A DNA stretch of 64,000 nucleotides from Bacteroidia bacterium (GTDB lineage: Bacteria; Bacteroidota; Bacteroidia; Palsa-965): assembly GCA_025454955.1 (NCBI GenBank), contig JALONL010000006.1:284198-348197 (forward strand). Direction: 5' to 3'. The notes under the pieces are model-generated. The model searched no databases, was not told where the DNA came from, and saw only the letters and a list, made by a program, of their open reading frames with translations. Positions 34,768 to 52,770 of the stretch are shown in pieces. The stretch's first letter is position 1. Each line of letters begins with the position of its first letter. Both the position numbers and the translations under genes were made by a program.

Positions 34768-35365
34768 TCAGCAGCAATTGTAAGTGACTGCGCACACGGC
34801 TGTGCCATTCCTCTTTAAGAATACTCAGCACAATACTGTCGCGCCGGGGGCCTTCGGGCATGGGAAGATTGCTTCGGAGAATGCCTTCGACTGTGCAGCC
34901 GATTTTTTTCATGGCCTCAATGCTTCGCTCGTTTCGTGCATCGGCCCTGAATTCCACACGTTCAAAACCACATTGTTCAAACGCAAATTGAAGCAGCAGA
35001 AATTTACAGTGGCGGTTTAAACCGGTTTGCTGAAAGGCTTTACCGTACCAGGTGTAACCCAACTGCAACGTAGCATACGAAAGCTGTATATCATAAAAAC
35101 GTGTGCTGCCCGCATACTGCCCGTTTCGTTTGTCGAAGACCACAAACGGATATTCCTTTTGCAGTTCGCGTGCCTGTAGGGTTTGTGAAACATACTCCTG
35201 CAAATCGTCGGCCGAGACAATGCGCATGAGCGAGTATTTCCAGATGTCGGGATCCTGTGCGGGAAAATGCCGGAGATGTGCCACATCAGTAAGTTGAAGC
35301 GGGCGAAGTAATGCTACTTCATCTTCAAGCACATAATTTTCGGTGGTCGAAAAATTCACCTGCAT
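34760..35365 (-). CDS. GNAT-family N-acetyltransferase (RimJ/RimL-like)
   Basis: A 201-aa ORF with an acetyl-CoA-binding-like segment (…ARNERSIEAMKKIGCTVEGILR…). Confidence 0.65.
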   Translation of the reverse strand: MQVNFSTTENYVLEDEVALLRPLQLTDVAHLRHFPAQDPDIWKYSLMRIVSADDLQEYVSQTLQARELQKEYPFVVFDKRNGQYAGSTRFYDIQLSYATLQLGYTWYGKAFQQTGLNRHCKFLLLQFAFEQCGFERVEFRADARNERSIEAMKKIGCTVEGILRSNLPMPEGPRRDSIVLSILKEEWHSRVRSHLQLLLTK

Positions 35366-35449: not shown

Positions 35450-36325
35450 TTACAAATCGCTTACCCGCCTCACGGTGCTTATTTTACGGTAAATGCGCGC
35501 CGAGGCATTTACCGGTTCGAAAAGCAGTTTAAACGCTTCGGGAGTAATATCGTAGTAACCGATAATCAGGTAACCGCCATCGCGAAGCGCGCTGTGAAAT
35601 TTCTTAATCACTTTCATCTTCAGATTTTCATCAAAATAAATCATCACATTCCGGCAAAAGATGATATCACAAGGACCGATAGGTTCTTCGTGAACAAGGT
35701 TGTGACGTAAAAAAGTAATTCGCTTTTTCAATGCATCGGTAATGGTGAAATGCTTTTCTTCGCGCACAAAGAAATTGGGCATTTGCACGGCCGCCATCGG
35801 ATCGTATTTCAGAAAGTTGATCCTGTAACGCTCCCAAAGCATATTGTTGTACACTGCTTCTTTGGCTTCTACAAGTGCCTGCGACGATAAATCGGTGGCA
35901 ATAAGCGAGGTTTTATCCTGCATATTTTTCTGGCGCAGCACAATGGCCATCGAATATACTTCTTCGCCGGTAGAGCAGCCTGCGTGCCAGATTTTGAGCG
36001 ATTCTTTTTTTTCAAACACCGGCAGCACTTCATTTCTCACCGCCTGCCAGGCATCGGGATTTCTGAAAAGCTCGGTGAGGTTTACCATCAGTTCATCCAC
36101 ATACTTAATAATCACCGATCGATCCTGAAGCATTTTGGCCCACACTTCCATGAGGTTGCCAAAGCCATACCGGGTCATTAAACGACCCAGTCCGCGCCGC
36201 AGCGATTTGCGTTCGTAATCGGTAAAGTCGAGTCCGAAGCGCGCGTTTACGGCCGTTACAAAGGCATTCAGCTCTTCGTCGGTAAAATCAACCTGCCTGT
36301 CTGTGTCTCCGGAAATCAGCATCAT
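35450..36325 (-). CDS. cheR: Chemotaxis protein methyltransferase CheR
   Basis: A 291-aa ORF. TELFRNPDAW...LKIWHAGCSTGEEVYSMAIVL... is the CheR SAM-binding signature. Confidence 0.85.
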   Translation of the reverse strand: MMLISGDTDRQVDFTDEELNAFVTAVNARFGLDFTDYERKSLRRGLGRLMTRYGFGNLMEVWAKMLQDRSVIIKYVDELMVNLTELFRNPDAWQAVRNEVLPVFEKKESLKIWHAGCSTGEEVYSMAIVLRQKNMQDKTSLIATDLSSQALVEAKEAVYNNMLWERYRINFLKYDPMAAVQMPNFFVREEKHFTITDALKKRITFLRHNLVHEEPIGPCDIIFCRNVMIYFDENLKMKVIKKFHSALRDGGYLIIGYYDITPEAFKLLFEPVNASARIYRKISTVRRVSDL

Positions 36326-36927
36326 CCGGCAGTTTGAACGGTTTGATTGACATTGCGGATGAGTTCCACAAACTGCTGATCGAAGAACCAGATGAATTCG
36401 GGAGTAAAATTCATCTCCTGGGTGATGAAGCTTGATTTAAAATTAATGGCGAATGTGTCGCGGTAAATCTGATTTCGTAAAAACCCGCGCAGTGCTTCCC
36501 CGCTCATTCGCTGCAACTGAGGCACATCGCCATAAATTTTCACATTCATGCGGTTGGCAAATTCGGTAACCACCGAAGCCGAAATGATATTATCCATTTC
36601 AAGCAGAATGGCATCCTGCATTTCGGCATTTCCGGCCAGGGCTGCGGGCAGGGCGGTCTGGTACAAATGCCCGGCTTCAGAATATGAGAAAACAAGGCAG
36701 CAGGTGCCCGGCAACTCGCCTTTTACGTGCGTAATAAGCAGGCAGACATCTTCCTTGTCATTCACCGGAAAATCGTCGAGTTCGGAAGCCTGTCGTAAAC
36801 GAAAATCCGACTCATCCACACGAATTTCCTTCTTCATGATTGCACTCATCGACACGGCAGCGCGGCCAAGACCGGCACGCGCCATCTGCATGGCGAAAAG
36901 AAATTCGGGAGTAGAAAACGACATCAT
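36322..36927 (-). CDS. CheC/CheX-like chemotaxis phosphatase-domain protein (tentative)
   Basis: A 201-aa ORF inside the che operon, with a weak CheC-like E..N segment (LLEMDNIISASVVTEF). The assignment rests mainly on context. Confidence 0.4.
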   Translation of the reverse strand: MMSFSTPEFLFAMQMARAGLGRAAVSMSAIMKKEIRVDESDFRLRQASELDDFPVNDKEDVCLLITHVKGELPGTCCLVFSYSEAGHLYQTALPAALAGNAEMQDAILLEMDNIISASVVTEFANRMNVKIYGDVPQLQRMSGEALRGFLRNQIYRDTFAINFKSSFITQEMNFTPEFIWFFDQQFVELIRNVNQTVQTAG

Positions 36928-36939
36928 ATTCAGAGGCGA

Positions 36940-38652
36940 TTAATAGTGCAGTGATTCGATAAATCTTTCTTTCCACAATCCCGATAAAATTCCGGGAACA
37001 TTTAGCACAAGGCATACATCGCCCGTACCCAATATGGTGGCTCCGCTGAAAAGCGGATGATGGTTCAGCGGTTCGCTTAGCGTTTTCTCCACAATTTCTT
37101 TTTGCTGAAGCAAACGATCCACCACAAAACCCACGGTGCTGGTTGAGGAGGATACAATGATTACATCGAACTCAGTTTCTGACGAGGTTTCGAATGTATC
37201 GGCTCCCGAAGCAATTTGCCCGTTTTGTTTGCCGTAAAAAATATCCGACAAAAAGAAAAGGGCAATGGTTTTTCCGAGATAATCGGCAATGAGTCCGCTG
37301 GTAGTGCGGTGAATTTGCTGTCGGTTATATGAAATAACGGCTTCGGTATTGCTTAGTGCAATGGCAAAGGGCTGGTTGCGCACTTCAAAAATCATGGCAC
37401 CTTTTACGGCCATTGTCGAAGGCAGGATGAGTTCGAAAGTGGTGCCGCTGCCGGGCAGTGTGCGCAGGTTTATTTTTCCGCCAACCGACTCGGCAGCACG
37501 TTTTACCACGTCCATTCCCACACCGCGTCCGGCAATGGAGTTAATGGAATCGGCACTCGAAAAGCCCGGTTCGAAGATGAGGTAAATTATATCCTCGTCG
37601 CTGAGCAGTGCGGCACGTTCGGCGGTGAGCAGTCCTTTTTCAATGGCTTTGCTTCTTATTACGGGTGCGTGAATTCCTTTGCCGTCGTCGGTAACTTCAA
37701 TAATTACATTTTCTTTTTCCGAACGTGCCGCAAGTTTTACGGTTCCGGTTTCGGGTTTCAGGGCGGCCAGTCTTTCGGCGGGTGTTTCTATGCCGTGTGC
37801 GGCGGCGTTGCGGATAAGATGCACAAGCGAATCGCTGAGTATGCGCAAAATGCTGCGGTCTATTTCTATTTCGGTGCCTTCGGTAATGAGTTCGGCTTTT
37901 TTCTGTTCCACACTGGCCGCATCGCGCAGCACGCGGTGAAACTTGCTGAACAAAAATCCGATCTGCACCAGGCGCACATCCATAACTGCATACTGAAGAT
38001 CGGAAGTGATGCGCTGCAACCGTACCATTTCGCTTTGCGCATTGCCTTTGGCGGTGTTGCGGGCAATGAGCGTATCGCGCTCAATAATGAGTTCGCCGAT
38101 GATGTTGAGCAGATTATCCAGTTTGCGCACCGGCACCTGCACCATGTCTGATACCGACAACTCGTGGTTCAGCTCTTCCTCTTCACCGGCATCGGTTTGC
38201 AGCAATTCATCGGCGGTGTGTTCAGTAGCCACAGCGTTATCGTTGCCGGCTGTTTCGTTTTCGCTTTGCTGCAAGGCATTGCGCAGGGCCACTTCTAGTT
38301 TTGTTTTGATGCCTTTGTAGCGCACGGTTTCGCCTGTTCGCAGCGAAGCGATAAGCTGGCACAGTGTATCGTTGGCCCGGTACAGTGCATCAAAGAAGGC
38401 GGTATCAATGGAAATGCGTTTTTGCTTGAGCGCATTAAACACATCTTCCATTACATGGCTCAGTGCCGCAATATCGTCGAAGCCCAGCCCCATTGCATTG
38501 CCTTTGAGCGTATGCGTGATGCGGAAAATGGCATCAATGGACTGTGCATTGTTCACGTCTTTTTCGAGAAGGGTAAACAGGCGGTTCAGTTCACTGCACT
38601 GCTCTTCAGCTTCGGCCAGAAAAAGTTCGCGGTATTCGTCGTTGCGGCTCAT
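36940..38652 (-). CDS. cheA: Chemotaxis histidine kinase CheA
   Basis: A 570-aa ORF with an Hpt domain (ITHTLKGNAMGLGF), an HATPase_c domain (…HLIRNAAAHGIE…, …DDGKGI…, …GRGVGMDVV…) and a C-terminal CheW-like domain. Confidence 0.9.
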   Translation of the reverse strand: MSRNDEYRELFLAEAEEQCSELNRLFTLLEKDVNNAQSIDAIFRITHTLKGNAMGLGFDDIAALSHVMEDVFNALKQKRISIDTAFFDALYRANDTLCQLIASLRTGETVRYKGIKTKLEVALRNALQQSENETAGNDNAVATEHTADELLQTDAGEEEELNHELSVSDMVQVPVRKLDNLLNIIGELIIERDTLIARNTAKGNAQSEMVRLQRITSDLQYAVMDVRLVQIGFLFSKFHRVLRDAASVEQKKAELITEGTEIEIDRSILRILSDSLVHLIRNAAAHGIETPAERLAALKPETGTVKLAARSEKENVIIEVTDDGKGIHAPVIRSKAIEKGLLTAERAALLSDEDIIYLIFEPGFSSADSINSIAGRGVGMDVVKRAAESVGGKINLRTLPGSGTTFELILPSTMAVKGAMIFEVRNQPFAIALSNTEAVISYNRQQIHRTTSGLIADYLGKTIALFFLSDIFYGKQNGQIASGADTFETSSETEFDVIIVSSSTSTVGFVVDRLLQQKEIVEKTLSEPLNHHPLFSGATILGTGDVCLVLNVPGILSGLWKERFIESLHY

Positions 38653-38669
38653 GAAAATTTATTGACCTG

Positions 38670-39047
38670 TTAAGCCGGCAAGGCATTCATTACTTTGTTT
38701 ACGGCAGCAGTGAGGCTTTCGGAAGTAAACGGCTTCACAATGTAATCGGCCGCACCCAGCGTCATTCCTTCGCTGATTACCGACTCCTGCCCTACTGCAC
38801 TGATCATAATTATCTGCGCCCTGATATTTTCTTCCTGCTTGAGTACTTTCAGAATATCAGTACCAATCATATCGGGCAGAATATTATCGAGCGTAATCAG
38901 ATCGGGATCAAGTTCAATGGCCAGATCAATAGCCGATTCGCCATTGGCCGCCTGCCCGGTTACTGTATATCCGGCAGCGATAAGTGCTTCGCTTATCATG
39001 GTTCGCATGTACAGCGAATCGTCAACAATAAGAACAGATTTCGACAT
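38670..39047 (-). CDS. cheY: Chemotaxis response regulator CheY
   Basis: A 125-aa ORF with VLIVDDS...DLITLD...DYIVKPF receiver-domain motifs. Confidence 0.9.
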   Translation of the reverse strand: MSKSVLIVDDSLYMRTMISEALIAAGYTVTGQAANGESAIDLAIELDPDLITLDNILPDMIGTDILKVLKQEENIRAQIIMISAVGQESVISEGMTLGAADYIVKPFTSESLTAAVNKVMNALPA

Positions 39048-39058
39048 CGTGTATGGGT

Positions 39059-39619
39059 TTAATCGTTTTGCATATTGAGTTTGTCCTGTATATCGGCTTC
39101 GGTGCGTACGAGGTGATTGAGGTGAAGCAACATAATTAACCGCGTACCGTCTTTCACCACGCCCGAAATAGCAGCCATGTCGAGCGACGAGTATTGCACA
39201 AAACCTGCCGCATCTTCAATCTGTTCTTCGTACACGTTAATGGTATCGGGCACTTCGTTTACAATTATGCCGGCTTTCACCGTTTCGTGTTCGAGCACCA
39301 GGGCATAGCGTTCCTGCAATTGCGTAGTTTTTTCGATTCCGAATTTTATTTCCGGATCGATTATGGCCAATATGTTGCCGCGAATATTTACCACGCCCAG
39401 AAAATAATCGGGCATTTGCGGTACGTGTGCAATTTTGGGGGCAGGCACAATTTCTTTGATCTTGTCGATAGACAGTGCGTACTCTTCGCGGCCAATTTTA
39501 AACACTACCAGCTGAATGCGGCGGCCGTTGGTTTCTTTTTCCTGAACTTCGGCGGCGGCTTCGCGCTTCACATCGTCGAGCGTGTAATGGCCGGGAGTAA
39601 TGGAGTTCGATGTATCCAT
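39059..39619 (-). CDS. cheW: Chemotaxis coupling protein CheW
   Basis: A 186-aa ORF with CheW-like domain features (…LVVFKIGREEYALSIDKIKEIV…, …GVVNIRGNILAIID…). Confidence 0.8.
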   Translation of the reverse strand: MDTSNSITPGHYTLDDVKREAAAEVQEKETNGRRIQLVVFKIGREEYALSIDKIKEIVPAPKIAHVPQMPDYFLGVVNIRGNILAIIDPEIKFGIEKTTQLQERYALVLEHETVKAGIIVNEVPDTINVYEEQIEDAAGFVQYSSLDMAAISGVVKDGTRLIMLLHLNHLVRTEADIQDKLNMQND

Positions 39620-39626
39620 GTCCGGC

Positions 39627-41582
39627 TCAGAGTTTAAATTTGCTTACACCGTCGAGCAGTTGCGTGGCTACATCGGCCAGGTCGCGGCTTGTGGCGGTCA
39701 CTTCGTTCATGCCAAGACTGAGTTCTTTCGACGAGGAGGCAATTTGTTCGGTGCCCGAAGCGGTTTCTTCGGCCACCACCACAATTTTCTCGATGTTTTT
39801 TACGGTCGATTGTATGGCCTGTTTCTGCGAGTTGGTGGCATCCACAATGCTGCGCGAGAGTGCGAGGGTTTCGCTGCTCATTTTCTCGATTTGCTGAAAC
39901 ACGGTTTCGGCATCTTTAGAAGCAGAGTTGCCGTTTATTACCGAACGTTCCATGGCATCAATGGCTTTGGAGGCCGAAATAATGTCTTTCTGCACTTCAC
40001 GGATTACCTTTTCAATTTCCACCGCCGAGCGGCGCGAGTCTTCGGCCAGTTTGCGTATTTCGTCGGCCACCACCGAAAAGCCGCGTCCTGCCTCGCCTGC
40101 GCGGGCAGCTTCAATGGCGGCGTTGAGGGCAAGCAGGTTGGTTTGCGAAGCAATGCCGGTAATAACGGTAAGTGCGCGTGTAATTTCTTCCGAGCGTTCG
40201 GTGAGCACGTTAATGGAAGCCGAAGACGAATGGGCCGAGCTTTGAATCTGCTGCATACTTTCCACCACCTTGCGCACAGTGCCTAAGCCTTCAGACGCAT
40301 TGGTCTTGCCCGTTTCGGCGGCCGACTGAATCAGTTCGGCCTTGGTGTTTACCTCATTCGATTCGCCGAGCACGGCATCAATAAGGCGGCTCGACTCGTC
40401 GGTTTGCTGAGCCTGTTGCTGTGTGCCTTCGGCCATTTGCTGTGTGGCTGAGGCCACTTCGCGGGTGGTGTTGCGCATTTGTTCGCCCTTGGTGAGCATT
40501 TCTTCGGCCGAAGAGGCTACCAGATTGGCCATTTTGGAAATGCGGTTGAGCAGTTGTCCCACATTATCGAGCGCATTATTGAGACCATCGCCCATGCGCT
40601 GCAATTCTTCATTATCGGTAATGCGCAGCGAAAAACGTTCGCGCAAATCGCCTTCGGCCATTTTATTTATCACGCGGCGTACTTCGTCGTTGGCTTTGTT
40701 GCGTTTTTCCACTTCCTCGTCTTTGGCCTTCAAACTCTTGCGCATCAGCCCCAGCGAGTTGTTGAGTTCAAGCATTTCGCCCGAAGTTTTGATCTTTACT
40801 TCTTCATCGAGATTGCCGCGGGCCACTTCATTTACCACCCGGTTTACTTCATGAATGGGTCTGATAATGGAACGCATAAGAATAAGTCCGAACACCACCG
40901 AAATGCCGAGCACCAAAAAAATGGCAATGGCCGTAAACGTGATGGTTTGTGCAAATGCTTCGGAAGATTCATCGCGAAGTATTTCCGATTTTTTCATAAT
41001 GGTTTCGCTCAGTGCTTCCATTTCCACGGCCAGCTTGTCGTAGGTAATTTCATATTCAGGCAAACGTGCTTTTACCATAAACTCCGCCATCGAATCGCCC
41101 GAAAAGGCAATTTTTACCAGTTCGTTGCTTACATCGGTATAAGATTGAAGCGCGGGCCTTACCGTGGCTAACTTGTCTTTTATTTCGGGCCCCAGGTCAA
41201 AAGCCGAAAGCCTGTCAATGGCCGACATGAAAGAACCCGTATGCAGGTTGAGACTTTCCCTGGTGTCTTTTACCTCATCGGCATTGGTTTCATCGGCCAC
41301 CACGGCACTAAGCACATCGGCCTTAATGGCATCGTGCGCCATGTCGGCTGTCATTTGCTGATAAATGGCACCGGATACATCCACGATACCATTTTTTGTT
41401 TTTTCTATCCGGCTCAAAGAGAAATAGGCATACACGCCCAGCGCAATAAAGAACAAGGCGTTTATTGCAATGATGAGTCCGACTTTTGTAATGATTTTCA
41501 TGGGGGGGAGTCTGTTGTTATTGGTGTGAAGTGTAGCGTGTAGTGTGTATATGCTTTTATTTTCTAGAAAGAAACTATACAT
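39627..41582 (-). CDS. Methyl-accepting chemotaxis protein (N-terminal TM sensor, HAMP, MCP signalling domain)
   Basis: A 651-aa ORF with two TM helices, a HAMP domain (…[21 protein letters not shown]…) and the highly conserved MCP tip (…[40 protein letters not shown]…). Confidence 0.9.
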
Positions 41583-42859
41583 CGTACAGTTCCCACGCAG
41601 GCGTTTTTGTTGGCCGGATTGAGTCCGGGATTGATGATGTATTGAAAATCGGGTTGCACAAAAAAGTGTTCGCCGAGCGGTTCTTTCCAGGTAATTTCAA
41701 TTACACTTTCAAATGTATCGGCAGGAGCGCCGGGCATACTGCGCCAGGCATTGCTTATGCGTGAGTGTGCGTAGGCAATTCCCAACTGGTCGTTTCTTCC
41801 GTGCCATACTCCGCGGTAATTAAAACCAAAGCCCACATAAAAATCGGTCATGTTGCTTTGCGTGGGTGCGTATGCAATTTGTCCGAAAATGCCTGGGCCT
41901 TTTCCTTCGTCGCCATCAAAATGAAAAAGCTGCTGATCGAAGTGCAGGTAAAGTCCCCAGTTTCCGGCGGCAGTGTATGCACCTGTATCGGTATATCGTT
42001 CGAAATCGGCGGTGTGATAGTAGCCGCCTAATTTCCAGGTGCCGGTTACTTCATCGCCACTCACAAAATGATAGTGCAGTTCGCCAATGCCCAATGCGCC
42101 TTCTTCTTTCGACATGCGCATACTGAGTCCATAAGGATCGGTATCAAAACTTTCGGGATCGCCGTCATATACTGCAGCCCTGAAACCCCAGCGGGCATTG
42201 AAATCGGCACTCACCAGCAGGGCCAGACTGGTGCGCGGATAAATGGCCAGCGGCACATTTAACGAGCCCGACGACATTACACCGAAAGCACTGTTTACAT
42301 ACAGCAAACCATAATCGGTAACCATGAATACAGAATTAAGGTCGTGCTTACCGGCAAGTAATGATACATTTCCGAAGGTTTGCTGATACCAAAGCTGATA
42401 GAGATAAGTAGCAGGCGTACTTTCGATATTGGAAAACACCTGCACATCGCCCACATAATCGCCGGTAACGGCCGCTCCGTGCGAGTGTTCGGCGTGCAGC
42501 ATAAACTCGCCGCCTTTAAACCATCCTGCCGAATCGGTGCTGAATCGTGCCGCAAGATCAATAAGCCCCATCTGCCCGTGCCCGGTTTGGCCGCCTCCCG
42601 AAAAATTGCGCGAAAAATCGCTGATATACTGAGCCGAAAATTCTACCGGCTCAGGGCGACTTGCCTCAGCCTGCGAACTGTTTGTGGTGGAGGAAACCGT
42701 GACATACCCTGCCGAATCGCCACGAAGGGCGGCAAGTTCTGAGGGCGTAAAAAACGCTTTCAGCTTTGCGCTGTCTGCCTGTGCCTGCAAAATGCCTGGC
42801 AAAAGGCAAAGCAAAATCAGTACCCAAAGCCGTGGGCCTGGGGGCGAGGGGTAATGCAT
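41564..42859 (-). CDS. Putative outer-membrane beta-barrel porin
   Basis: A 431-aa ORF with a signal peptide ([18 protein letters not shown]), alternating amphipathic strands and a C-terminal Phe (…VSF). Confidence 0.45.
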
Positions 42860-43414
42860 TGAGGTTGAGTTTTGGGCCTTTGATTTACAATAGGTCTGAG
42901 GGTAAACTTATTGCAAACTGATGCTTATACATCTATTAATCATGAATGGTTACCGTTGCGGGATTAAAAACAATTATTTCCATCCTTTTTCCTAAAATTG
43001 AAAAAATACATCCATGTAAACCGGTACAAAAATAGCTCAGTCAACATTTATTGTTGCACCATCATTCCGTACACTACACGTTTCCCTTAGCTTGAAAGTA
43101 CTGTAAAAACAACTCATTTGCATTAGCGCATCAATAATCATTGACACTTTATTTCATTTGTAAATAAAAACCATGGGAGAAATGTGTACAGTTTTCAAAT
43201 GAAATCTTCCTTTCAAAGCCGAGCTAAAAATGCAAGAAAAAAATCATTCATAAATTGATTTAATTCTATTGTATTATTAAAATATATTTAAAAGGAAATT
43301 TCAGCCCCCGGGGTTAACACCATGCATTTCCGGCCGGAAAGAGCAGAACCTTATTTTTTTATAGAATAATACCTGCGTTTTGTAAACAGAAAAAAATATA
43401 CCTTTGTCGAAGAT

Positions 43415-43580
43415 CAAAAGGGGTGCTGAGGGGCAAATTGCCGCGAGGCTGAGATCATACCCGGTGTAATACATTTTCTCAAAAAATGTGTACACGCACC
43501 TGAACAAGGTAATTCTTGCGTAGGGACAGGATCCGGTGAAAGAAGCGTTTCCCTTTAACGAAGAATTCACCGGGTCGCAA
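43415..43580 (+). ncRNA. TPP (thiamine pyrophosphate) riboswitch with downstream expression-platform hairpin
   Basis: GGGGUGC...CUGAGA..UACCC...ACCUGAACAAGGUAAUUCUUGCGUAGGGA matches the THI-element conserved cores (CUGAGA, ACCUGA.C, GGAUAAU-like GGUAAUU, GCGUAGGGA). It is followed by the hairpin CCGGTGAA...TTCACCGG 15 nt before the ATG of the TonB-dependent transporter. Confidence 0.8.
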
Positions 43581-43591
43581 CGAATCATTAA

Positions 43592-45991
43592 ATGAAAAAC
43601 ACATTATTCAGCCTCGCGGTACTGTGGATACCGCTGTGCGCAACGGCCCAGCTCAGACTGAGTGGAACCGTATCAGACCCAAACGGGCAACCAGTAAGTT
43701 TTGCCGCCGTGCAGATTTCGGGCACGTTCAGCGGGGCAATTACCAATGCCGCCGGGCAGTATCAGCTTCTCAATTTAAGCCGCGGCACGTATTCCATAAA
43801 GGCAAGCTGCCTCGGCTACACGCCCGAAATCAAAACCATTACGCTGAACAGCGACACCGTAGTTAATTTCCAACTCACTGCCGCCGCGTATCTCCAGCAG
43901 GAAGTGGTGGTGCAATCGACCAGGGCCAATGCCAACTCGGCCATGGCAAGCACCGAAGTAAGCAAAGACGATCTGGCGCAGGTAAATTACGGGCAGGATT
44001 TGCCCATACTGCTCAACCTGCTACCCTCGGTAGTGACCACTTCCGATGCCGGTGCGGGCGTGGGTTACACGGGCATACGCATACGCGGCACCGATGCCTC
44101 GCGCATTAATGTGACCATTAACGGCATTCCGGTAAACGATGCCGAATCGCAGGGTGTGTTTTGGGTGAATATGCCCGACTTTGCCTCGTCGGTGCAAAGC
44201 ATTCAGGTGCAGCGCGGCGTGGGCACGTCAACCAACGGAGCCGGTGCGTTTGGCGGTTCGGTAAATATGCAGACTGATGATTTGCGCGACTCGGCCTATA
44301 CCGATTTGGTGGTGTCGGCAGGCTCGTTCAATACGCGGCGCGTGTCGTTTAAAACAGGCACAGGGCTAATCAAAAAACACTGGGCTTTCGACGGCCGCCT
44401 TTCGCGTATCAGCAGCGACGGGTTTATAGACCGGGCATCGTCTGAACTGCAATCGTGGTACGGCAGCGGAGGCTGGTATGGCGATCGTTTTTTTGTGAAA
44501 GCCGTGGTATTTTCGGGCAACGAAAAAACGTATCAGGCATGGTACGGTGTGCCCGAAGATTCGGTGCGTGCCGGAAATTATACCTACAATCCTGCCGGAG
44601 AAATTTACACGCCACAGGGCAATGTAATATACTACGACAACGAAACCGACAATTACCGACAAACGCATTACCAGCTCATCAGCGCCTATACCCTCTCGCC
44701 CGAGTGGACGCTCAACACTGCGCTGCACGCCACACGCGGACTGGGCTACTACGAGCAATACAGGGCTGGCGAAACTTTTGCCGAATATAATTTGCCCGAT
44801 TACATTTCGGGTAACGACACCATTTCCACCACCGATCTTGTGCGCCGTCTCTGGCTCGACAATTGGTTTTACGGCCTCACCTTTTCGCTCAACGGCCGCA
44901 TAAACAACCGCTGGCAAATTGTGGCAGGCGGTGCAGCCAATCAGTACAACGGCGATCACTACGGCACAGTGGAATGGACGCAGGCCCCGCTCGTGCAGCC
45001 GCGCGATTTTAAATACTACTTCAACAACGGTCTCAAAAACGATATTACCGTTTACCTGAAATCGAACTGGCAGGCCACCAAAACAATCAACCTTTTTGGC
45101 GATGTGCAGGCGCGTTACGTAAGCTACACGTTTGAAGGATTCGACCGCAATGCCAACAACGTGACGCAGGAAGTGAGTTACTTTTTCCTGAATCCCAAAG
45201 CCGGTGTGACTTTTACGCCCAATGATGCACACTCGTTTTACGCCTCGGTGAGTGTGGGCAACAAAGAACCCAACCGCGACGATCTCACCGAATCGTCGCC
45301 CGAAAGCCGACCGAAACACGAAACACTTTACGACGGCGAGGCAGGCTGGAAATACACCCGGCGCAAACTCCGCGCAGGAGTCAATTTGTATTACATGTAT
45401 TACATCAATCAGCTTGTGGTAACCGGCAAACTGAATGATGTGGGCGCATACACGCGGCAGAATGTAGATCGCAGCTACCGCGCCGGTGTGGAACTGGAAG
45501 CCGCCTGGCAGCCGTTTAAAAAATTGGGCGTGGCCGGAAACCTTACACTGAGCCAAAACCGCATTCTCGATTTCGAAGAGTTTGTGGATGATTTTGATAA
45601 TGGCGGACAGGTGATAAACAAATTTGCCGAAACCGATATTGCGCTTTCGCCCGCCGTGGTGGCTGCCGCGCAGCTCAACTGGATGCCTGCGAAACCGCTG
45701 CTGTTTACGCTTACTGCAAAACATGTGGGAAGACAATACTTAGACAACACCACTAATACAAACCGCAGCATTGATCCGTTTACGGTAAGTGATTTCAGGG
45801 CGCAGTGGAAATTTCCGGTAAAGGAAATGCGCGAACTTACGCTGGGCGTACAGGTAAACAACCTGCTTAATTTGCGGTACAGCAACAATGGCTACACCTT
45901 CGGCTTCATTGCCGGCGGGCCACAGCAGTTCAATTATTTTTTCCCGCAGGCGGGGCGTAATTTTATGATTATGCTTACTGCAAGATTTTAA
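43592..45991 (+). CDS. TonB-dependent outer-membrane transporter (CarboxypepD_reg + plug + barrel), riboswitch-controlled; likely thiamine/thiamine-precursor uptake
   Basis: A 799-aa ORF with a signal peptide, a CarboxypepD_reg-like N-terminus (LSGTVSDPNGQPVSFAAVQISG…GQYQL) and a plug (…GIRIRGTDASRINVTINGIPVND…). It ends in a terminal Phe. Confidence 0.85.
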   Translation: MKNTLFSLAVLWIPLCATAQLRLSGTVSDPNGQPVSFAAVQISGTFSGAITNAAGQYQLLNLSRGTYSIKASCLGYTPEIKTITLNSDTVVNFQLTAAAYLQQEVVVQSTRANANSAMASTEVSKDDLAQVNYGQDLPILLNLLPSVVTTSDAGAGVGYTGIRIRGTDASRINVTINGIPVNDAESQGVFWVNMPDFASSVQSIQVQRGVGTSTNGAGAFGGSVNMQTDDLRDSAYTDLVVSAGSFNTRRVSFKTGTGLIKKHWAFDGRLSRISSDGFIDRASSELQSWYGSGGWYGDRFFVKAVVFSGNEKTYQAWYGVPEDSVRAGNYTYNPAGEIYTPQGNVIYYDNETDNYRQTHYQLISAYTLSPEWTLNTALHATRGLGYYEQYRAGETFAEYNLPDYISGNDTISTTDLVRRLWLDNWFYGLTFSLNGRINNRWQIVAGGAANQYNGDHYGTVEWTQAPLVQPRDFKYYFNNGLKNDITVYLKSNWQATKTINLFGDVQARYVSYTFEGFDRNANNVTQEVSYFFLNPKAGVTFTPNDAHSFYASVSVGNKEPNRDDLTESSPESRPKHETLYDGEAGWKYTRRKLRAGVNLYYMYYINQLVVTGKLNDVGAYTRQNVDRSYRAGVELEAAWQPFKKLGVAGNLTLSQNRILDFEEFVDDFDNGGQVINKFAETDIALSPAVVAAAQLNWMPAKPLLFTLTAKHVGRQYLDNTTNTNRSIDPFTVSDFRAQWKFPVKEMRELTLGVQVNNLLNLRYSNNGYTFGFIAGGPQQFNYFFPQAGRNFMIMLTARF

Positions 45992-46006: not shown

Positions 46007-46045
46007 CTCAAAACGCCGCTCTTTTCAGGGCGGCGTTTTTATTAT
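46007..46045 (+). terminator. Rho-independent terminator after the TonB-dependent transporter
   Basis: AAAACGCCGC-TCTTTTCAGG-GCGGCGTTTT followed by TATTAT. Confidence 0.65.
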
Positions 46046-46423: not shown

Positions 46424-47860
46424 ATGTACATCCACAATCATCCTTCAAACAGTCCGTTTCTGTATGAATCGGAAGGAAAATTTACCGCCGGTGCACTTGA
46501 GGCGTACAATGAATTGCTGCGAAACGAAACAGACTGGCTCGTGCGTGTAATGCTGTTGCGTTTCCCGAAATCGTCCAACGGCGGTTACGAATTTGCTTCG
46601 GAAGCAAACTGGGAACAACTGCCTCCGCCCGATTTGCGCGATGGCAAAGGTCCGTATGCCGCGCTGGTAAATGCGCTCGAACTTGGTGCCGAAGAACGTT
46701 TGCTGCTCATCCTCACGCTGGCGCGGCAAATGAGCAAGCACTCGCTCAAGGTGCTTACGGATATTCTGATGACTCAGGCAGAGTATCACGACGAAATTGG
46801 CTGTTACTTCGTTACACCCAACCGTTCGCTGGTGTTTACGCTCAATACGGTGCTTACGCTCATTGCGGGCAATCATGCAGGACGGCGCGGTATGGCGTTT
46901 ACCAAACTGGTGCAGGAAAGTAAATTGGTGCGTGAGCAGATTCTTGAATTTGAAACACCTACCAATTTCAGCATTCAGTTTGGCGAGGGCGAAAAAGCAC
47001 CGGTGCTGGCCAAAGAGTATGTCACATTTCTGCTCAGCGGAAAACCGCCACGTCCTGATTTTGGCGAGAATTTCCCGGCCAAATTGGTAAGCACCAATCT
47101 CGACTGGCATCACCTCGTGGTACAGAAAGCCACGCGCGACGAAATAAACTGGGTGGTGCAATGGATCAGCCACGGCAGGCCGTTTACCGAACGTGTGGGC
47201 AGCAGGGCAATAAGCAGTTTTCCGGTGTTGTTTTTCGGCCCTCCCGGCACGGGCAAAACACTGGCGGCAAAACTCATCGGCAAGCAGTTTGGCAAAATGG
47301 TATTTCGTATCGACCTCTCGATGATGGTGAGCAAATACATCGGCGAAACCGAAAAAAACCTCGCCCGCCTGTTTGACCGCGCACAGGGCAAAGACTGGAT
47401 TCTGTTCTTCGACGAGGCCGATTCGCTCTTCAGCAAACGCACACAGGTAAACGACTCGCACGATAAATGGGCCAACCTCGAAACCAGCTACCTCCTGCAG
47501 CGCATCGAAGAATACGACGGTCTCTGCATCCTCGCCACCAACCTGCGCGACAATATTGATGCCGCCATGCTGCGTCGTTTTCAATACACCATCCATTTCC
47601 CGCGTCCCACAGAGGAACTCCGCGAACAACTCTGGAAAAGCCTGCTGCCAAACGGCTATGAGTTCGACCAGCTCGACTTCCGCAAACTCTGCGTGCAGGA
47701 TTTAACCGGTGCCAACATATCCAACGTACTCAACCACGCCTGCCTCGCCGCCGAAGCCGAGGGGCGAACGGTGTTGAAGAACTCAGAAATTGTACAGTTC
47801 ATGGCACTGGAGCTGATGAAGGAAAGTCGTACACTGAAATCGACCGATCATATTAAGTAA
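46424..47860 (+). CDS. AAA+ ATPase of the eCIS-associated (Afp15/Pvc15-like, CDC48-type) family
   Basis: A 478-aa ORF. The C-terminal AAA domain has Walker A FFGPPGTGKTLAAKLIG, Walker B ILFFDEAD, sensor-1 ILATN and an arginine finger region. …MMVSKYIGETEKNLARLFDRA… is the hallmark stretch of this ATPase family. The N-terminal ~270 aa are of unknown function. Confidence 0.75.
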   Translation: MYIHNHPSNSPFLYESEGKFTAGALEAYNELLRNETDWLVRVMLLRFPKSSNGGYEFASEANWEQLPPPDLRDGKGPYAALVNALELGAEERLLLILTLARQMSKHSLKVLTDILMTQAEYHDEIGCYFVTPNRSLVFTLNTVLTLIAGNHAGRRGMAFTKLVQESKLVREQILEFETPTNFSIQFGEGEKAPVLAKEYVTFLLSGKPPRPDFGENFPAKLVSTNLDWHHLVVQKATRDEINWVVQWISHGRPFTERVGSRAISSFPVLFFGPPGTGKTLAAKLIGKQFGKMVFRIDLSMMVSKYIGETEKNLARLFDRAQGKDWILFFDEADSLFSKRTQVNDSHDKWANLETSYLLQRIEEYDGLCILATNLRDNIDAAMLRRFQYTIHFPRPTEELREQLWKSLLPNGYEFDQLDFRKLCVQDLTGANISNVLNHACLAAEAEGRTVLKNSEIVQFMALELMKESRTLKSTDHIK

Positions 47861-47892
47861 GAAGTTTCCGTTTACATTTTCATTGCACAGTT

Positions 47893-50800
47893 ATGTCGCA
47901 TCGCCGCAATTTATATTCCTATCACGACGACGATTATTTCAAAACCCCGCAGCAACGCGCCTCCGAAGCCGCCAACAAAGCACAGGCCGATGCCGAGATG
48001 GATTTTGAGTATAACACCTGGCCGCGTTTGCAGCAAAAAATGGACGCGGGTCTTACACTCACGAAATATGAGTTGTATGATACGCGCATGTTTGGCGGGC
48101 CGCTGCACCGGACAAAGACTTTTGCCTACGTGCGTGCGCAGCAGAATGCGGAGAAGCTGAGTGTGGCTGCGGCCGATTCGGCTGAGGAGAAACAGGCGGA
48201 TGCGGTGGCCAACGCCGTGGCCACTGGCGGCGAGGTGCAAACCACCTCTACTGCCTCAGGGAAAACCGAAAGTTCGTCGCTTACTGTTTCGCCGGAGTTT
48301 GAGGAAAAACTGCTGGCAGGTAAAGGCCAGGGCGAACCACTCAACAGTGCATTGCGTGGGGAGATGGAAAGCAAAATGAATGGCGATTTCGGTGATGTGC
48401 GTGTGCATACCGGTGCTGATGCAGCGGAGATGAGCGCGGAGATAAATGCGCGGGCGTTTACGCATGGGAAAGATGTGTACCTGGGCAGCGGGGAGAGTGT
48501 GGAGGATAAGGAGTTGATGGCGCATGAGTTGGTGCATACGATCACTCCGGGAAATATCATTAAGCGCAAAGGAATAAACGATCCGTTGAATTACGGACTG
48601 CACCCCGAAGTAAAACCTAATTTCTTAAAAGGCAAAACCCTGTTAATGGATGCCGACGGCGATGGTTATCAGGAATTAGAACTTGTATTATATCTCGATA
48701 AAGACAAGGTTTTACAATTACAGGTGCATCATCTCGATAGCGACGTGTGGACCAACCGGCAGCACTTCCAGTCAGATAAAGAAGCATTGGTGGTATTAAA
48801 CTTTCAGACTCTGGGTGCAGCACATAAAACCTCAAAATTTACGCCCAACGATACCGAACTGAATACAAATTATATCAATCAGTTCAAACTCTATGATGAA
48901 GTCGATCCGGATAAAAAATCATATCAGCTAAATTTTGGTGCCGATGTGAATTTCAGACAGAATGGACAATACCATGCTGCTTTGGGCCCACACAAAATTA
49001 CATTCACTGTTAACCCATCAAAAATAAAGAAGCGCAGTGAAGATATTTCGTTTACCGAAACACGAAAGGCCGAAGCATTATCAGGCCCAATATATACGTT
49101 TCAGGCAGGGCAGCAGGGCGATGAAATAGAACTGCAAATTCAACAGGATTTCGAAGCTGCCATTCCTCAGGAAATGATAGCACAGAACCGAACCTCGGCA
49201 TATTCCATTTATGGATATATGAAAAGGCTAAATGGAAAAATTGTCCGATGGACAGAGCCGGTAATGGTTTATGCCGTAAACAATCAAATGCCGGCTTCAT
49301 TAAATCCGGTATATCAGGATGAAAAACTCATAGAACTGGGCATATCCGGATCATTCCTGCCTGATATAACCATTCATTATTATACGCTCTCCGAAAAAAA
49401 CAAATTCTATCATAATCGAAAAATACAACTTCATTTTTCAGGCCCTGCATTGTTCGGCGGTAAAGACTTCAGATCATTTATCCTCGTTAATAATTTCCCC
49501 GTAGCCAATTCAAACTTCCGTGGGGAAGATGATTACCATTCACTTTTAGATTATGAAGCACCAGCCATGCTGAATAATCAGGGTAAACCGTTGTCGGTGG
49601 AAGAAGATATTGCAAAAACAGAGGCCATACTTCTGCAACTGATGCAGCGACTTGTTCTCGACGGGAGTATGAATGAAATGGTTTTTCTTTCCTGGAAAGA
49701 ATACCTCCTGTCAAGAACTGTTCTTGAGGTAGTAAAGAATGCTAAAGTAAATAGTGAAGAAGAAAAAGCGCAAAGAAATTCCATTATTTTCAACGCAGCC
49801 ATGAAAGCCGACGCGTTTGCGTACCAGCTCATGAGGGAAACGAAAGCTTATGGCTATGTGCTTTCAAACAGTTATCCATCAAAAACAATTATCGTCGGGA
49901 ACTGGTCTAAAGAAGAGAAAGAATTTGAAGAGTTACATGCTTTATTAGATAATTATGTATTGAATATTGCTTCACGGAATACCGGCAATACTCCACCCGA
50001 TTATATTCACGACATTACATCATCGCCATCTGCTCAGCCCTACAGTGTTCAATACCGCTTACCTACCGAAGAAGAATTTACAGCCTACGAAAAGAGCAAA
50101 AAACAAGAAACAGACAGTATAAGAACCAACCTGAGAAACGAAGCAAAGGCCGAAGGATTAAATGAAGCGCAACAGCATGATAAACTTGTGGGGTCATACT
50201 CACATTTTGCCACTTACCGCAACCAGTTAAAAGAAATTGAGAAAAAGCAGTACCTGCAAAAAATAAATGCCGTTTTCTATGGCACTACTCCCGAACATAT
50301 TAACCAGTTTAATACGTCGTCAAGTACAAATGCGGTGGCGGTGCCGCTGCCGATTTGGGTGTATGTGGAAAACAACGAATGGCATATTGTGGATTTAATT
50401 AATCCTCAACAGCCATTCAAAGCTGCAGTACCGTATTATTCAGAAAACGGGAGCAATCCGCCCGAAGCACTTTTCGAGCAGCTAAACCACGAAAAGCATT
50501 TGCCCAAAGGTTATATATACTATCAGATCGGCGACCAAAAGAAAGTGGTAATTACCCAGGGCGAACAAACACAGTGGTATGATATTTTGGGTTATATCGC
50601 ACTGGGATTGGGGTTTGTAGGATTAAGCATAGCTACTTTTGGAGCAGCACTGCCTGCCAAAATTGCCGTACTGGGCACCGTAGTAAGCTACGCCAGCATA
50701 ATTACCGGCGCACTGAGCACCGCCGGCGACATGTGGGACAGTTACAAACACGGGCAGCTTACCGATCAGACACTCATGCTCAATATGCTCGATCTGGCCG

Positions 50801-52770
50801 GAGCATTGCTGCAATTAAAAACATTGTCGATAAGCCTTCTGCTTCGTTCAGAAACTATGGCCGCAAAACTGCCCAAAGCATTGCAGGCAGCCAAATTGGT
50901 TTACATGCCGCTGAAAATTGGCGAATACGCCACCGAAGGCACAAGACTATTTATCATTACTGCCGATGCTGCCGAACAAATTACTCAGATCATAAATGCT
51001 CCGGGCGACGATGAAGCCAAAAAGCGGGCATTGGTTACACTACTCTCGCAAATGGCACTTTCGTTGAGCATGTACGTGCTCGACGTGAAAGACTATGGCG
51101 ATGAAGTAAACTTAGTGCGTAATGCCGGAAAAAAATCAGGAGCAACCACACATTCACCACATACCGAACCTGATATAAATATTAAGATAAATGAACTATC
51201 CGGCAATGAAAATGTGGGCAAATCGGTAGTGGAGGCGGCTGGCGAAACTCAGGAAGAAATTCTCGGCGGTGACTCCGAAACACCAGTCACTACGGCACAA
51301 CAACGTGTGACGTATGGAAAGGACGAAAAGGGTTTTTACCGTACCAATCTCGACCAGCCTCACATACAACAACGTATAACCGAAGCCGAGTTCTACAACG
51401 CACGGGTAAGCATTGCCAATGCGCAGGTCAAAAAAACAGGCAAAATCGAAAACCCCGCCAAGGTTTCGGTCGATGCGTTGTTGCTGCTTGTGGCCTTTGC
51501 CGATCTGCAAATACAAGCCGTGAATTATCCGGCAGGCATTCTCGCCGGTGTGTCCACCGCCACGCTGTTGCTCCGCAAAGGTATGCGGGGCATGATTGGC
51601 AAACTCAAAGCAAAGAACCCCGGCATCAGCGACAAAGAATTATTGGATGAACTTAAAAAGACGATTCACAGCGATGGGGAACTAAACCGTTCGTTGAAGG
51701 AAAAGAATTTTAACTCTATTGATGAGGTGGATTTTGAAATGCCCGATGGCTCGAAGAAAAAGTTTGACGAGATAGCGCAGGAAGAAATTGACCATTCAAA
51801 ATTGCCCGACGAGGAGCGTAAGAAGATTGAGGCCGAACAGGAGGCAGAGCTAAAACCTGAGCAAAAGGAAAAGATCACCACGGAGGACGAAACGGTAAAG
51901 CCGAAAGAGGAAACACCTGAGATAAAACCGGAAATTACGTCTAAGAAAAAGATTGAGTACTGGGCAGAGGATCAGCTAACGCATGTACCCGGCAACCCGG
52001 AGTACCTGAAAATTATGCTTAATGGCGATCCGAAGCAGATTATTACGCTCAAGCGGGAGAAGGATAAGGATTGGATTGTACAGAGAGGAACGAAAGAAGC
52101 GAACGATAATAATAAGTTGACGAATGAAGAGATTTTGGAGAGAGTGCCGGAGAAGTATCGTAAAAAAAGTGAGACAATAAATCCGAATGAGGATGTAACA
52201 CAGAATACCTCCAATGAGGTTGAGAATAAAAAATCTGAAATACAAAAAGACAATTCAGAAAAATTAACATCTAAAAAGGCTGAGACCGGTGAACCTCCTT
52301 TTGCAAAGAGGAAAACAATATTGAAAGTTGGAGAGCCAATACTTAATGGTAAAATAAACCGGGTGCGTGCTGGCGATGAGAAGAAAATTGTTATTATCGG
52401 ATTAGATATGAACGGGCATGTAATTCCAATTGCCAAAGAATTACAAAGTCAGGGATTTGACGTGGAAATTTTAGAGGATAATTTTCTAAATGGTCGTACA
52501 TTTGAAATTGATGGTAAACAATGGACAGTTACCGAGGCTTTTAATGATATGGTTGAAAATGATAAATACGATGGCATGAGAGGGTTAGATAATAAAATTT
52601 TGCCAGAGTTTTTAGATCAAATACCAATGTATAAGCTAAACGAACAATGGATAACAGAACATAAAACGTCTGGAAAAACGATTCTTGATGTTGGAGGGCC
52701 TGCTAACTCAAATAAAACAAGCACCTTCTATAATATGGAAATTAACTCAATAAATTGGAACACGCAATGA
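47893..52770 (+). CDS. Giant polymorphic-toxin-like protein (1625 aa): N-terminal DUF4157 zincin-like domain, long central region with TM helices, K/E-rich disordered linker, variable C-terminal (toxin) domain
   Basis: Residues ~150-215 (coordinates ~48340-48540) read RGEMESKMNGDFGDVRVHTGADAAEMSAEINARAFTHGKDVYLGSGESVEDKELMAHELVHTI. This matches the DUF4157 consensus (fG.DFs.VRvH.d..A...a..l.ArAfT.G.diyf........LlAHEL.Hv). Hydrophobic helices lie at ~50580-50740 (ILGYIALGLGFVGLSIATFGAALPAKIAVLGTVVSYASIITGAL). A ~147-aa charged linker, repeated twice more downstream, precedes a unique C-terminal ~190 aa. Confidence 0.8.
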   Translation: MSHRRNLYSYHDDDYFKTPQQRASEAANKAQADAEMDFEYNTWPRLQQKMDAGLTLTKYELYDTRMFGGPLHRTKTFAYVRAQQNAEKLSVAAADSAEEKQADAVANAVATGGEVQTTSTASGKTESSSLTVSPEFEEKLLAGKGQGEPLNSALRGEMESKMNGDFGDVRVHTGADAAEMSAEINARAFTHGKDVYLGSGESVEDKELMAHELVHTITPGNIIKRKGINDPLNYGLHPEVKPNFLKGKTLLMDADGDGYQELELVLYLDKDKVLQLQVHHLDSDVWTNRQHFQSDKEALVVLNFQTLGAAHKTSKFTPNDTELNTNYINQFKLYDEVDPDKKSYQLNFGADVNFRQNGQYHAALGPHKITFTVNPSKIKKRSEDISFTETRKAEALSGPIYTFQAGQQGDEIELQIQQDFEAAIPQEMIAQNRTSAYSIYGYMKRLNGKIVRWTEPVMVYAVNNQMPASLNPVYQDEKLIELGISGSFLPDITIHYYTLSEKNKFYHNRKIQLHFSGPALFGGKDFRSFILVNNFPVANSNFRGEDDYHSLLDYEAPAMLNNQGKPLSVEEDIAKTEAILLQLMQRLVLDGSMNEMVFLSWKEYLLSRTVLEVVKNAKVNSEEEKAQRNSIIFNAAMKADAFAYQLMRETKAYGYVLSNSYPSKTIIVGNWSKEEKEFEELHALLDNYVLNIASRNTGNTPPDYIHDITSSPSAQPYSVQYRLPTEEEFTAYEKSKKQETDSIRTNLRNEAKAEGLNEAQQHDKLVGSYSHFATYRNQLKEIEKKQYLQKINAVFYGTTPEHINQFNTSSSTNAVAVPLPIWVYVENNEWHIVDLINPQQPFKAAVPYYSENGSNPPEALFEQLNHEKHLPKGYIYYQIGDQKKVVITQGEQTQWYDILGYIALGLGFVGLSIATFGAALPAKIAVLGTVVSYASIITGALSTAGDMWDSYKHGQLTDQTLMLNMLDLAGALLQLKTLSISLLLRSETMAAKLPKALQAAKLVYMPLKIGEYATEGTRLFIITADAAEQITQIINAPGDDEAKKRALVTLLSQMALSLSMYVLDVKDYGDEVNLVRNAGKKSGATTHSPHTEPDINIKINELSGNENVGKSVVEAAGETQEEILGGDSETPVTTAQQRVTYGKDEKGFYRTNLDQPHIQQRITEAEFYNARVSIANAQVKKTGKIENPAKVSVDALLLLVAFADLQIQAVNYPAGILAGVSTATLLLRKGMRGMIGKLKAKNPGISDKELLDELKKTIHSDGELNRSLKEKNFNSIDEVDFEMPDGSKKKFDEIAQEEIDHSKLPDEERKKIEAEQEAELKPEQKEKITTEDETVKPKEETPEIKPEITSKKKIEYWAEDQLTHVPGNPEYLKIMLNGDPKQIITLKREKDKDWIVQRGTKEANDNNKLTNEEILERVPEKYRKKSETINPNEDVTQNTSNEVENKKSEIQKDNSEKLTSKKAETGEPPFAKRKTILKVGEPILNGKINRVRAGDEKKIVIIGLDMNGHVIPIAKELQSQGFDVEILEDNFLNGRTFEIDGKQWTVTEAFNDMVENDKYDGMRGLDNKILPEFLDQIPMYKLNEQWITEHKTSGKTILDVGGPANSNKTSTFYNMEINSINWNTQ
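51717..52157 (+). repeat. Copy 1 of a ~440-bp direct repeat (encodes the K/E-rich pre-toxin linker) inside the giant gene
   Basis: TCTATTGATGAGGTGGATTTTGAAATGCCCGATGGCTCGAAGAAAAAGTTTGACGAGATAGCGCAGGAAGAAATTGACC... is near-identical to 53377-53820 and 54648-55095. Confidence 0.85.

Follow-up and report, generated by a model that had tools for sequence, protein, structure and literature searches.

A probable TPP riboswitch with an additional helix

A 64,000-nt stretch of a Bacteroidia genome (contig JALONL010000006.1, positions 284,198 to 348,197; hereafter the window, whose numbering is used throughout) contains, at 43412-43533, what is very probably the aptamer of a riboswitch that senses thiamine pyrophosphate (TPP) and controls the downstream, monocistronic gene for an OMthi-type TonB-dependent transporter. 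Within the strand that connects helices P2 and P4 (J2/4), this aptamer carries an extra hairpin, PX, a well-supported fifth helix in the loop of the k-junction that appears not to have been described so far. The leader (43399-43591) and the gene, an open reading frame (ORF) at 43592-45991 that follows it directly, both lie on the plus strand.

An earlier, sequence-only reading had described a TPP riboswitch ahead of an outer-membrane thiamine-uptake transporter. Its THI-box motifs and its 799-aa TonB-dependent transporter are real, as attested by motif coordinates, ORF and domain matches, and comparison backs the assignment as a whole: a THI-box precedes the orthologous transporter gene not only in the window but at 82 of 84 fetched loci (the two misses lack upstream sequence), and the gene is linked to thiamine genes. 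Read from the sequence, CUGAGA lies at 43449-43454 and ACCUGAAC...GCGUAGGGA spans 43498-43526. The ligand boxes, CUGAGA and CCUGA...GCG.AGGGA (43449-43454, 43499-43503 and 43518-43526), are invariant in alignments A2-A5. CUGAGA, the J3/2 segment on the plus strand that forms the pyrimidine-binding pocket, is a ligand contact known from the thiM and thiC crystal structures (Serganov 2006; Thore 2006, as summarised in PMC10573300). Since the ligand-contacting boxes are intact, the element very likely senses TPP.

Pairing was assessed mainly in two alignments: A3, an 11-sequence MAFFT alignment with the structure taken from the window and not fitted to a model, and A5, an 84-row alignment fitted to a covariance model; because of this fitting A5 leans towards the proposed structure, a bias from which A3 is free. 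In the minimum free energy (MFE) fold of the leader (z=-3.5), the P2 5′ strand GGGU (43421-43424), preceded by A-A-A-G, pairs with ACCC (43459-43462), which matches the pairing in canonical TPP riboswitches, where CUGAGAUCAUACCC is contiguous. P2 is 100% paired in A3 and 99.4% in A5; its pairs are invariant and hence carry no covariation information. P3, a hairpin of variable length at 43425-43449 with the closing pairs G43425-C43449, C43426-G43448 and U43427-G43447, is 98.8-100% paired and shows some covariation. Folds and covariation likewise support the pyrophosphate-sensor arm P4/P5 (CCUG-AA-CAAG-GUAAUU-CUUG-CG-UAGG, 43499-43524), with 89% pairing in P4, 98% in P5 and compensatory changes in P5. 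P1, formed by GAUC at 43412-43415 and GAUC at 43530-43533, is the weakest helix (60-65% of cells paired, many pair types), and all five of its alignment pairs vary on both sides (84 sequences; 60% of cells paired).

PX is a covarying hairpin in J2/4

PX occupies 43464-43495 on the plus strand. It consists of GUGUAAUACAUUUU and AAAAUGUGUACAC and forms a 13-bp hairpin with one bulged A and the loop CUCAA (strands GUGUA-A-UACAUUUU and AAAAUGUG-UACAC), replacing the kink-turn (k-turn) loop nucleotides L2 and L3. Its fold is that of one hairpin directly abutting the junction (z=-3.84). In the MFE fold as in the comparative alignments, it follows the P2 3′ strand ACCC (P2′) and precedes P4, and thus lies in J2/4 and outside P3. 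J2/4 therefore measures 36 nt including the 32 nt of PX, as against about 6 nt in the canonical short form, which is why we treat the element as a variant of RF00059 and not as an ordinary member. Formally, PX would turn the three-way junction into a four-way junction.

The sequence-only reading had noticed this long hairpin and placed it as an insert in P3. The hairpin is present, but the placement does not stand, since P2′ (ACCC, 43459-43462) precedes it. That PX is a P3 extension or the optional P3a stem is extremely unlikely: cmscan does put the extra bases in the P3a insertion slot, but this needs several non-canonical P1 and P2 pairs in the RF00059 alignment and leaves out of account the invariant AUACCC immediately 3′ of CUGAGAUC, which stands in the same place in canonical orthologues. 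With ACCC taken as P2′, P2 is 99-100% paired and the hairpin falls 3′ of it, an arrangement that recurs in 96 distinct aptamers, and we rejected this identity for PX on those grounds.

The helix is borne out by covariation. The four closest relatives (56-83% protein identity) combine an invariant core with a ~32-nt segment of differing sequence at the same site. In A3, 84.5% of cells over the whole structure pair, as against 27-49% with the partners slid, and none of 500 shuffles reaches the observed covariation. A5 gives 86.7% (slid partners, 27-54% over A3 and A5), again with 0/500 shuffles as good. All 13 PX pairs vary on both sides across the 11 sequences of A3, with compensatory changes in each, and the four basal pairs are 89% paired with 4-6 pair types each among the ~29 PX-carrying sequences of the 84 rows in A5.

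At its gathering score, the Rfam model RF00059 has no match anywhere in the window, and a permissive scan returns 28.2 bits (E=0.0015), ~26 bits short of the gathering score of 54.3. RF00059 thus does not call the element, and the score is formally of the kind that the sequence-only reading had named as refuting it. A low Rfam score is not a valid refutation for this element, however, because PX itself lowers the score. The permissive alignment is mis-registered, with the hairpin put in the P3a insertion slot and several non-canonical pairs in P1 and P2. The four closest relatives, all with the insert, score 27.6-37.2 bits; further leaders reach 54.1-68.2 bits without an insert and 29.8-45.9 with one, and all 12 insert-bearing leaders tested fall below the threshold. 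The low score is thus attributable to the extra helix and is no sign of an absent riboswitch; the gathering threshold is an operational cut-off, not a biological feature. A variant covariance model, built from 11 other genomes with the window and its two nearest relatives, the orthologous loci L001 and L002, left out, scores the window leader at 85.4 bits (E about 1e-27), its sole match on both strands of the 64 kb. This model also finds the THI-box ahead of the transporter gene at the 82 of 84 loci.

The sub-threshold score, together with the A that the window has for the consensus U after CCUGA, could alternatively point to a decayed, non-functional THI-box relic, or to a variant whose ligand specificity has changed from TPP to thiamine precursors. 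Either is very unlikely, given that all ligand-box nucleotides are conserved in >100 PX-bearing aptamers, that every variable helix covaries, that the association with uptake genes is maintained and that PX fully accounts for the score.

Distribution of PX

A scan of one genome per species yielded 80 orthologous loci. J2/4 in the orthologous leaders is either canonical, with 4-5 nt (22 loci), or bears an insert of 21-98 nt (31 leaders, including that of the window). Each of the 31 inserts of this genome set forms one hairpin, closed by a pair 1-3 nt away from either end of the insert. Most are far stabler than shuffles (z down to -11.5), with L017 and L052 as exceptions; the z-value of the L004 insert is unreliable, the search pattern having clipped that insert. 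Overall, PX is present in ~35% of 83 orthologous leaders, and in the genome set it is found mainly in Sphingobacteriales (Pedobacter, Mucilaginibacter), in some Flavobacteriales and in the lineage of the window itself, being absent from the representatives of Cytophagales, Crocinitomicaceae and Cyclobacteriaceae. Its sizes fall into two classes, of about 15-45 nt and about 65-95 nt, and its sequences are unrelated between lineages. The long PX helices of the Mucilaginibacter loci L029, L035 and L049 (inserts of ~73-95 nt) are GC-rich palindromes that have CCCCUAAAGGGGAG...-type arms in common and look like repetitive extragenic palindromic (REP) elements; some PX helices may have a mobile origin.

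Scanning metagenomes with the pattern ACCC-N22-50-CACYUGA returned 77 complete PX THI-boxes, whose inserts are single flush hairpins in 77/77 cases (median z -4.1). They are followed by 48 genes for OMthi-type transporters, 17 for Pnu-like proteins and two for ABC substrate-binding proteins, with contig ends in the remaining 10. The Pnu-like proteins comprise ~210 aa, and the three that were checked against Pfam were all confirmed as Pnu-family. Every identifiable downstream gene is an uptake gene, and no biosynthesis gene follows any of the 77, a sample that the search pattern may bias.

PX probably replaces loop nucleotides of the k-junction

The junction of the TPP riboswitch is the founding example of the k-junction. 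Its P2/P3 arm is the canonical (C) helix, its P4/P5 arm the non-canonical (NC) helix, and P1 the third helix on the non-bulged strand (PMC10573300), which makes J2/4 the bulged strand. In Arabidopsis, J2/4 reads C-U-U-U (L1, L1.1, L2, L3), followed by G1b, an inserted A and A2b; L2 of the k-turn is stacked on the NC helix, with L3 facing the solvent, and of 11,056 sequences 76% have G at position 1b and 17% have A (PMC4005666). By comparison with that register, the last C of ACCC in the window is L1 and G43463 is L1.1, and J2/4 reads C(L1)-G(L1.1)-PX-G(1b)-C-A(2b). The G-C-A at 43496-43498 on the plus strand thus provides G1b, the inserted nucleotide and A2b, with A1n (43526) and G2n (43525) as partners. 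At sequence level the tandem G.A/A.G pairs of a k-junction are present (G43496...A43526 and A43498...G43525); the 3-4-nt bulged-strand loop (L1, L1.1, L2, L3) is not, its L2 and L3 being replaced by a helix.

Across the 96 distinct PX-bearing aptamers, PX is flanked on each side by 1-2 unpaired nucleotides, and position 1b is G in 65 (68%) and A in 26 (27%). Between 1b and 2b all of them have C, as against A in 16 of 22 canonical orthologues; the search pattern required this C for the metagenome subset, and in the genome subset it is equally constant without having been imposed. A2b was the only base the pattern allowed, and the scan says nothing on its conservation. The fixed C is possibly a structural co-adaptation. 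With L1/L1.1, G1b, A2b and the partners A1n and G2n retained, the two ligand-sensing arms could keep their geometry, and PX would most simply be a peripheral, structurally tolerated helix. In the literature searched, no TPP variant with an additional stem, a helix in J2/4 or a four-way junction was described, although an earlier mention may exist.

PX could also be a passenger, that is, a palindromic insertion (REP-like, resembling a miniature inverted-repeat transposable element (MITE), or generated by slippage) that is merely tolerated in the one solvent-exposed spot of the junction and takes no part in sensing or regulation; we regard this as quite possible, if on balance improbable. The unrelated sequences and two size classes would fit such an origin, as would the repeat-like Mucilaginibacter inserts (GC-rich palindromes of about 73-95 nt), the many PX-less orthologues with canonical scores and the solvent-facing L3 of the k-turn (PMC4005666). 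It sits less well with the compensatory changes that keep PX paired even among close relatives (window, L001 and L002), with its invariably flush position on 1-2-nt linkers, and with the constant C that separates 1b from A2b, a position at which A prevails in canonical orthologues. The PX sequence is, moreover, single-copy in the window, and all identifiable downstream genes in the sample are uptake genes. A function does not follow from these points, since a hairpin placed here would in any case have to remain paired so as not to poison the aptamer.

Expression platform and a match in the coding region

The 58 nt between the P1 3′ strand (P1′, 43530-43533) and the AUG are dominated by a 47-nt platform hairpin in the MFE folds (43530-43576, plus strand; outer stem 43530-43540/43566-43576, inner stem 43546-43549/43557-43560), with the loop UCCCUUU (43550-43556) and no U-tract after it. 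The hairpin is conserved in six clade members; of the 12 pairs in their consensus fold, three show compensatory changes, and GAU is common to the hairpin and P1′. Since GAUC at 43530-43533 serves both as the P1 3′ strand and as the foot of the hairpin, P1 when stabilised by ligand and the complete platform hairpin are mutually exclusive; the predicted strand exchange between them is established at the level of sequence and covariation. Ligand binding would turn expression off, by analogy with all TPP riboswitches so far characterised on uptake genes, that of Bacteroides OMthi among them.

No intrinsic terminator was found in the leader of the window or of its five clade relatives; among 74 other leaders, 36 show a hairpin and U-tract resembling a terminator when a lenient criterion is applied. 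Because the leader is without such a terminator, translation or mRNA fate, which we give an even chance of being the regulated step, is favoured over intrinsic termination, which is quite unlikely. The platform loop UCCCUUU is complementary to AAAGGGG at 43417-43423, which includes the P2 5′ strand (-11 kcal/mol). As an anti-P2 element in the window it was not significant (z=-0.55) and is kept as a suggestion only; family-wide, CCCCU-type platform elements are enriched, with 25% of leaders beating 95% of their own shuffles (median z=-1.2).

PX might itself belong to the expression platform, with one arm pairing with the start-codon region to mask it, since its 5′ arm CAUUU is complementary to AAAUG at the start codon. 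This is hardly credible: the match comprises 5 bp only, PX persists in both modelled states, and in 84 leaders no run between aptamer and downstream sequence exceeds 9 bp except a match between P3 and the coding region of the window, the best sites not lying consistently in PX.

That exceptional match joins positions 43439-43453 (the P3 3′ arm plus CUGAG) to the coding segment UUCAGCCUCGCGGUA (codons 6-10; 43607-43621, plus strand) over 12 contiguous Watson-Crick pairs, or 15 pairs with G.U. RNAduplex, which allows giant interior loops, was uninformative on such long aptamer/coding pairs, and we used the longest run as the statistic: a 12-bp run was reached in 0/2000 mononucleotide or codon shuffles, and the other 83 leaders have runs of at most 9 bp. 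The segment could act as an anti-aptamer inside the coding region that competes with the aptamer fold and couples ligand sensing to early coding sequence. Besides exceeding all shuffles and all other leaders, the helix is used in the unconstrained MFE fold (-77.6 kcal/mol, as against -61.3 with the aptamer enforced), and both of the A-to-G differences that separate the P3 3′ arm of the window from that of L001 raise the complementarity, one at the cost of a P3 pair. The match is not conserved, however, L001 having two A.C mismatches and L002, L003 and L005 having no match; predicted start-codon accessibility is the same in both states; regulation of the wrong sign would follow from the simplest logic, with the coding region paired in the apo state, unless one assumes a weak local hairpin at the AUG; and a single lineage-specific match may arise by chance after many comparisons. 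An effective coding anti-aptamer is accordingly improbable in our view; the 12-bp match may be a lineage-specific anti-aptamer or chance.

A broader proposal would make PX aptamers a distinct TPP riboswitch subclass, defined by a four-way junction built from a helix in the k-turn loop, a co-varying C at the 1b/2b bulge and a position before uptake genes (OMthi, pnuT, ABC binding proteins), with PX tuning folding or ligand response and, in this genome, the coding anti-aptamer at 43607-43621 joining the switch. We consider this combination rather unlikely and retain the tolerated peripheral helix as the simplest account of PX.

Upstream of the aptamer, TACCTTTG at 43399-43406 on the plus strand is a candidate Bacteroidetes-type -7 promoter box (TAnnTTTG), with a possible -33 element, TTTG, at 43379-43382; both were read from the sequence, and the consensus is that of Bacteroides promoters. 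T-A-C-.-T-T-T-G is invariant in a five-leader alignment, and in most other leaders ...TTTG precedes P1 by 4-9 nt. On the opposite strand, an ORF of 95 aa spans the whole riboswitch (43301-43588, minus strand) and is almost certainly a mechanical ORF rather than a gene.

Transporter gene and thiamine gene context

The transporter gene (43592-45991, plus strand, ATG start) encodes a 799-aa protein that combines a signal peptide with CarboxypepD_reg and Plug domains and a TonB-dependent beta-barrel. A protein encoded by an uncultured Bacteroidia metagenome-assembled genome (MAG) matches it at 100% identity, and it has >8000 homologues, with thousands at ~50% identity across Bacteroidota. The label OMthi-type refers to the TonB-dependent architecture (Plug plus 22-strand barrel), the upstream TPP riboswitch and the linkage to thiamine genes; in Bacteroidota, transporters of this type carry out the step of thiamine uptake at the outer membrane. 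A strong intrinsic terminator at 46010-46039 on the plus strand (13-bp stem plus U-run) makes the gene monocistronic.

Genes for a TenI-like protein (TMP-TENI), a Pnu-family transporter and an AAA_28 protein lie 8-10 kb upstream of the riboswitch (33009-34767, plus strand), within an operon at 31634-34767 that runs from ACPS and PcrB-like genes through the TenI-like and Pnu-family genes to the kinase-like AAA_28 gene. Scans of the window with RF00059 and the variant model detected no riboswitch before this TenI-Pnu operon, which leaves the transporter as the only riboswitch-controlled thiamine gene in the window. At L001, L003 and L004 the transporter gene follows the genes for a Pnu transporter and an AAA_28 protein, with a TenI-like gene too at L003. 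Overall, a Pnu-family gene lies within 1.2 kb of the transporter in 25/84 loci, as against ~9 kb upstream in the window. In nine genomes it stands directly downstream of the transporter in the same orientation, mirroring the Bacteroides OMthi-pnuT-tnr3 operon. We infer that the linked Pnu proteins are specific for thiamine.

Several results weigh against a functional TPP riboswitch acting on thiamine uptake at this locus. The RF00059 score of the element is far under the gathering score, and P1 has only 4 bp in the window, as against 5-7 bp in relatives (GAUCC/GGAUC). In constraint folding the start-codon region is equally open with the aptamer enforced or disrupted (unpaired probability about 0.6-0.7), and start-codon masking does not differ between the bound and apo states. 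Folding the leader together with the first 50 nt of the coding region gives an unconstrained MFE structure that is 16 kcal/mol stabler than the one containing the aptamer. The Pnu/AAA_28 pair, finally, could in principle serve nicotinamide riboside rather than thiamine.

The window also holds a GNAT gene at 34760-35365, the counterpart of which abuts the riboswitch in L001 and L002. Between GNAT gene and riboswitch, a chemotaxis cluster (CheR, CheA, a CheY-like receiver, CheW and MCP) and an OprB-family porin gene occupy 35450-42859 on the minus strand; given the adjacency of GNAT and riboswitch in L001 and L002, the 7.5-kb block appears to have been inserted or to result from a rearrangement. 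In Bacteroidia, chemotaxis genes are unusual. Downstream, at 46424-52770 on the plus strand, genes for an AAA ATPase (weak similarity to IteA-like and proteasomal ATPases) and a 1625-aa eCIS_core protein are probably part of an extracellular contractile injection system locus.

Some orthologous loci showed features of their own. L037, from a Marivirga MAG, has two tandem THI-boxes (861-949 and 1027-1115) upstream of its OMthi-type gene. In L017, L023, L024, L047, L052 and other Sphingobacteriaceae loci, the OMthi genes appear to start with TTG or GTG within ...AAAUUGAAAAAAUU..., and calling ATG starts only shortens the signal peptides of these proteins. Just upstream of the riboswitch, Flavo-1 RNA (two copies; L017, 550-789) and Acido-Lenti-1 RNA (L028, 727-771) score above their Rfam gathering thresholds.

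Implications and comparison with known systems

A riboswitch before an OMthi-type transporter is an already documented arrangement in Bacteroidetes, and the sequence-only reading was right to call it typical of Bacteroidota, as Bacteroides OMthi has been reported to have it (10.1101/867226; PMC5613172). Both OMthi and PnuT have a part in thiamine-dependent growth (PMC5613172); OMthi is regulated by a TPP riboswitch, and of the 97 riboswitches linked to transport in 114 Bacteroidetes genomes, 85 stand ahead of OMthi (10.1101/867226). Because the latter survey used RF00059, it would miss sub-threshold PX variants. More generally, RF00059-based surveys of thiamine regulation undercount transporter riboswitches in soil and freshwater Bacteroidota, since the model misses PX leaders (12/12), which make up ~35% of orthologous OMthi leaders and include those of cultured Pedobacter and Mucilaginibacter. 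A natural, covarying helix at L2/L3 would also show that a k-turn loop can act as a branch point, which would be useful for RNA design and motif searches. The remaining biology is presumably as expected, with thiamine uptake repressed by TPP.

In architecture and context, the locus is like BtTPP2 of Bacteroides OMthi (BT2390), where a TPP riboswitch stands directly upstream of a TonB-dependent transporter that acts with PnuT (Costliow and Degnan 2017; Costliow, Degnan and Vanderpool 2019), and repression by thiamine would be expected here too. In B. thetaiotaomicron, however, BtTPP2 controls translation, and fewer than 5 nt separate the end of its aptamer from the start codon, whereas the window has 58 nt with a conserved hairpin; and unlike in the BT2390 unit, the pnu gene of the window lies outside the regulated unit.

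With the RF00059 family (E. coli thiM, A. thaliana thiC), the element shares helices P1-P5, the CUGAGA and ACCUGA...GCGUAGGGA boxes, the G.A/A.G core and the association with thiamine genes. It differs from that family in the fifth helix of about 15-93 nt (32 in the window) in J2/4 at L2/L3, and from the usual TPP riboswitch in having C instead of A between 1b and 2b. The optional P3a stem resembles PX as a facultative peripheral hairpin of variable length and sequence, but P3a belongs to the pyrimidine arm, in the stretch from CUGAGA to P2′, whereas PX comes after P2′, at the junction. With the k-junction as described by the Lilley laboratory (Wang et al. 2014; Li et al. 2023), the window shares P2 as C helix, P4 as NC helix and P1 as third (T) helix, and it keeps the 1b.1n and 2b.2n pairs (G43496/A43526 and A43498/G43525). 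Known k-junctions, however, carry an extra helix only on the non-bulged strand, whereas in the window a further helix replaces L2/L3 on the bulged strand.

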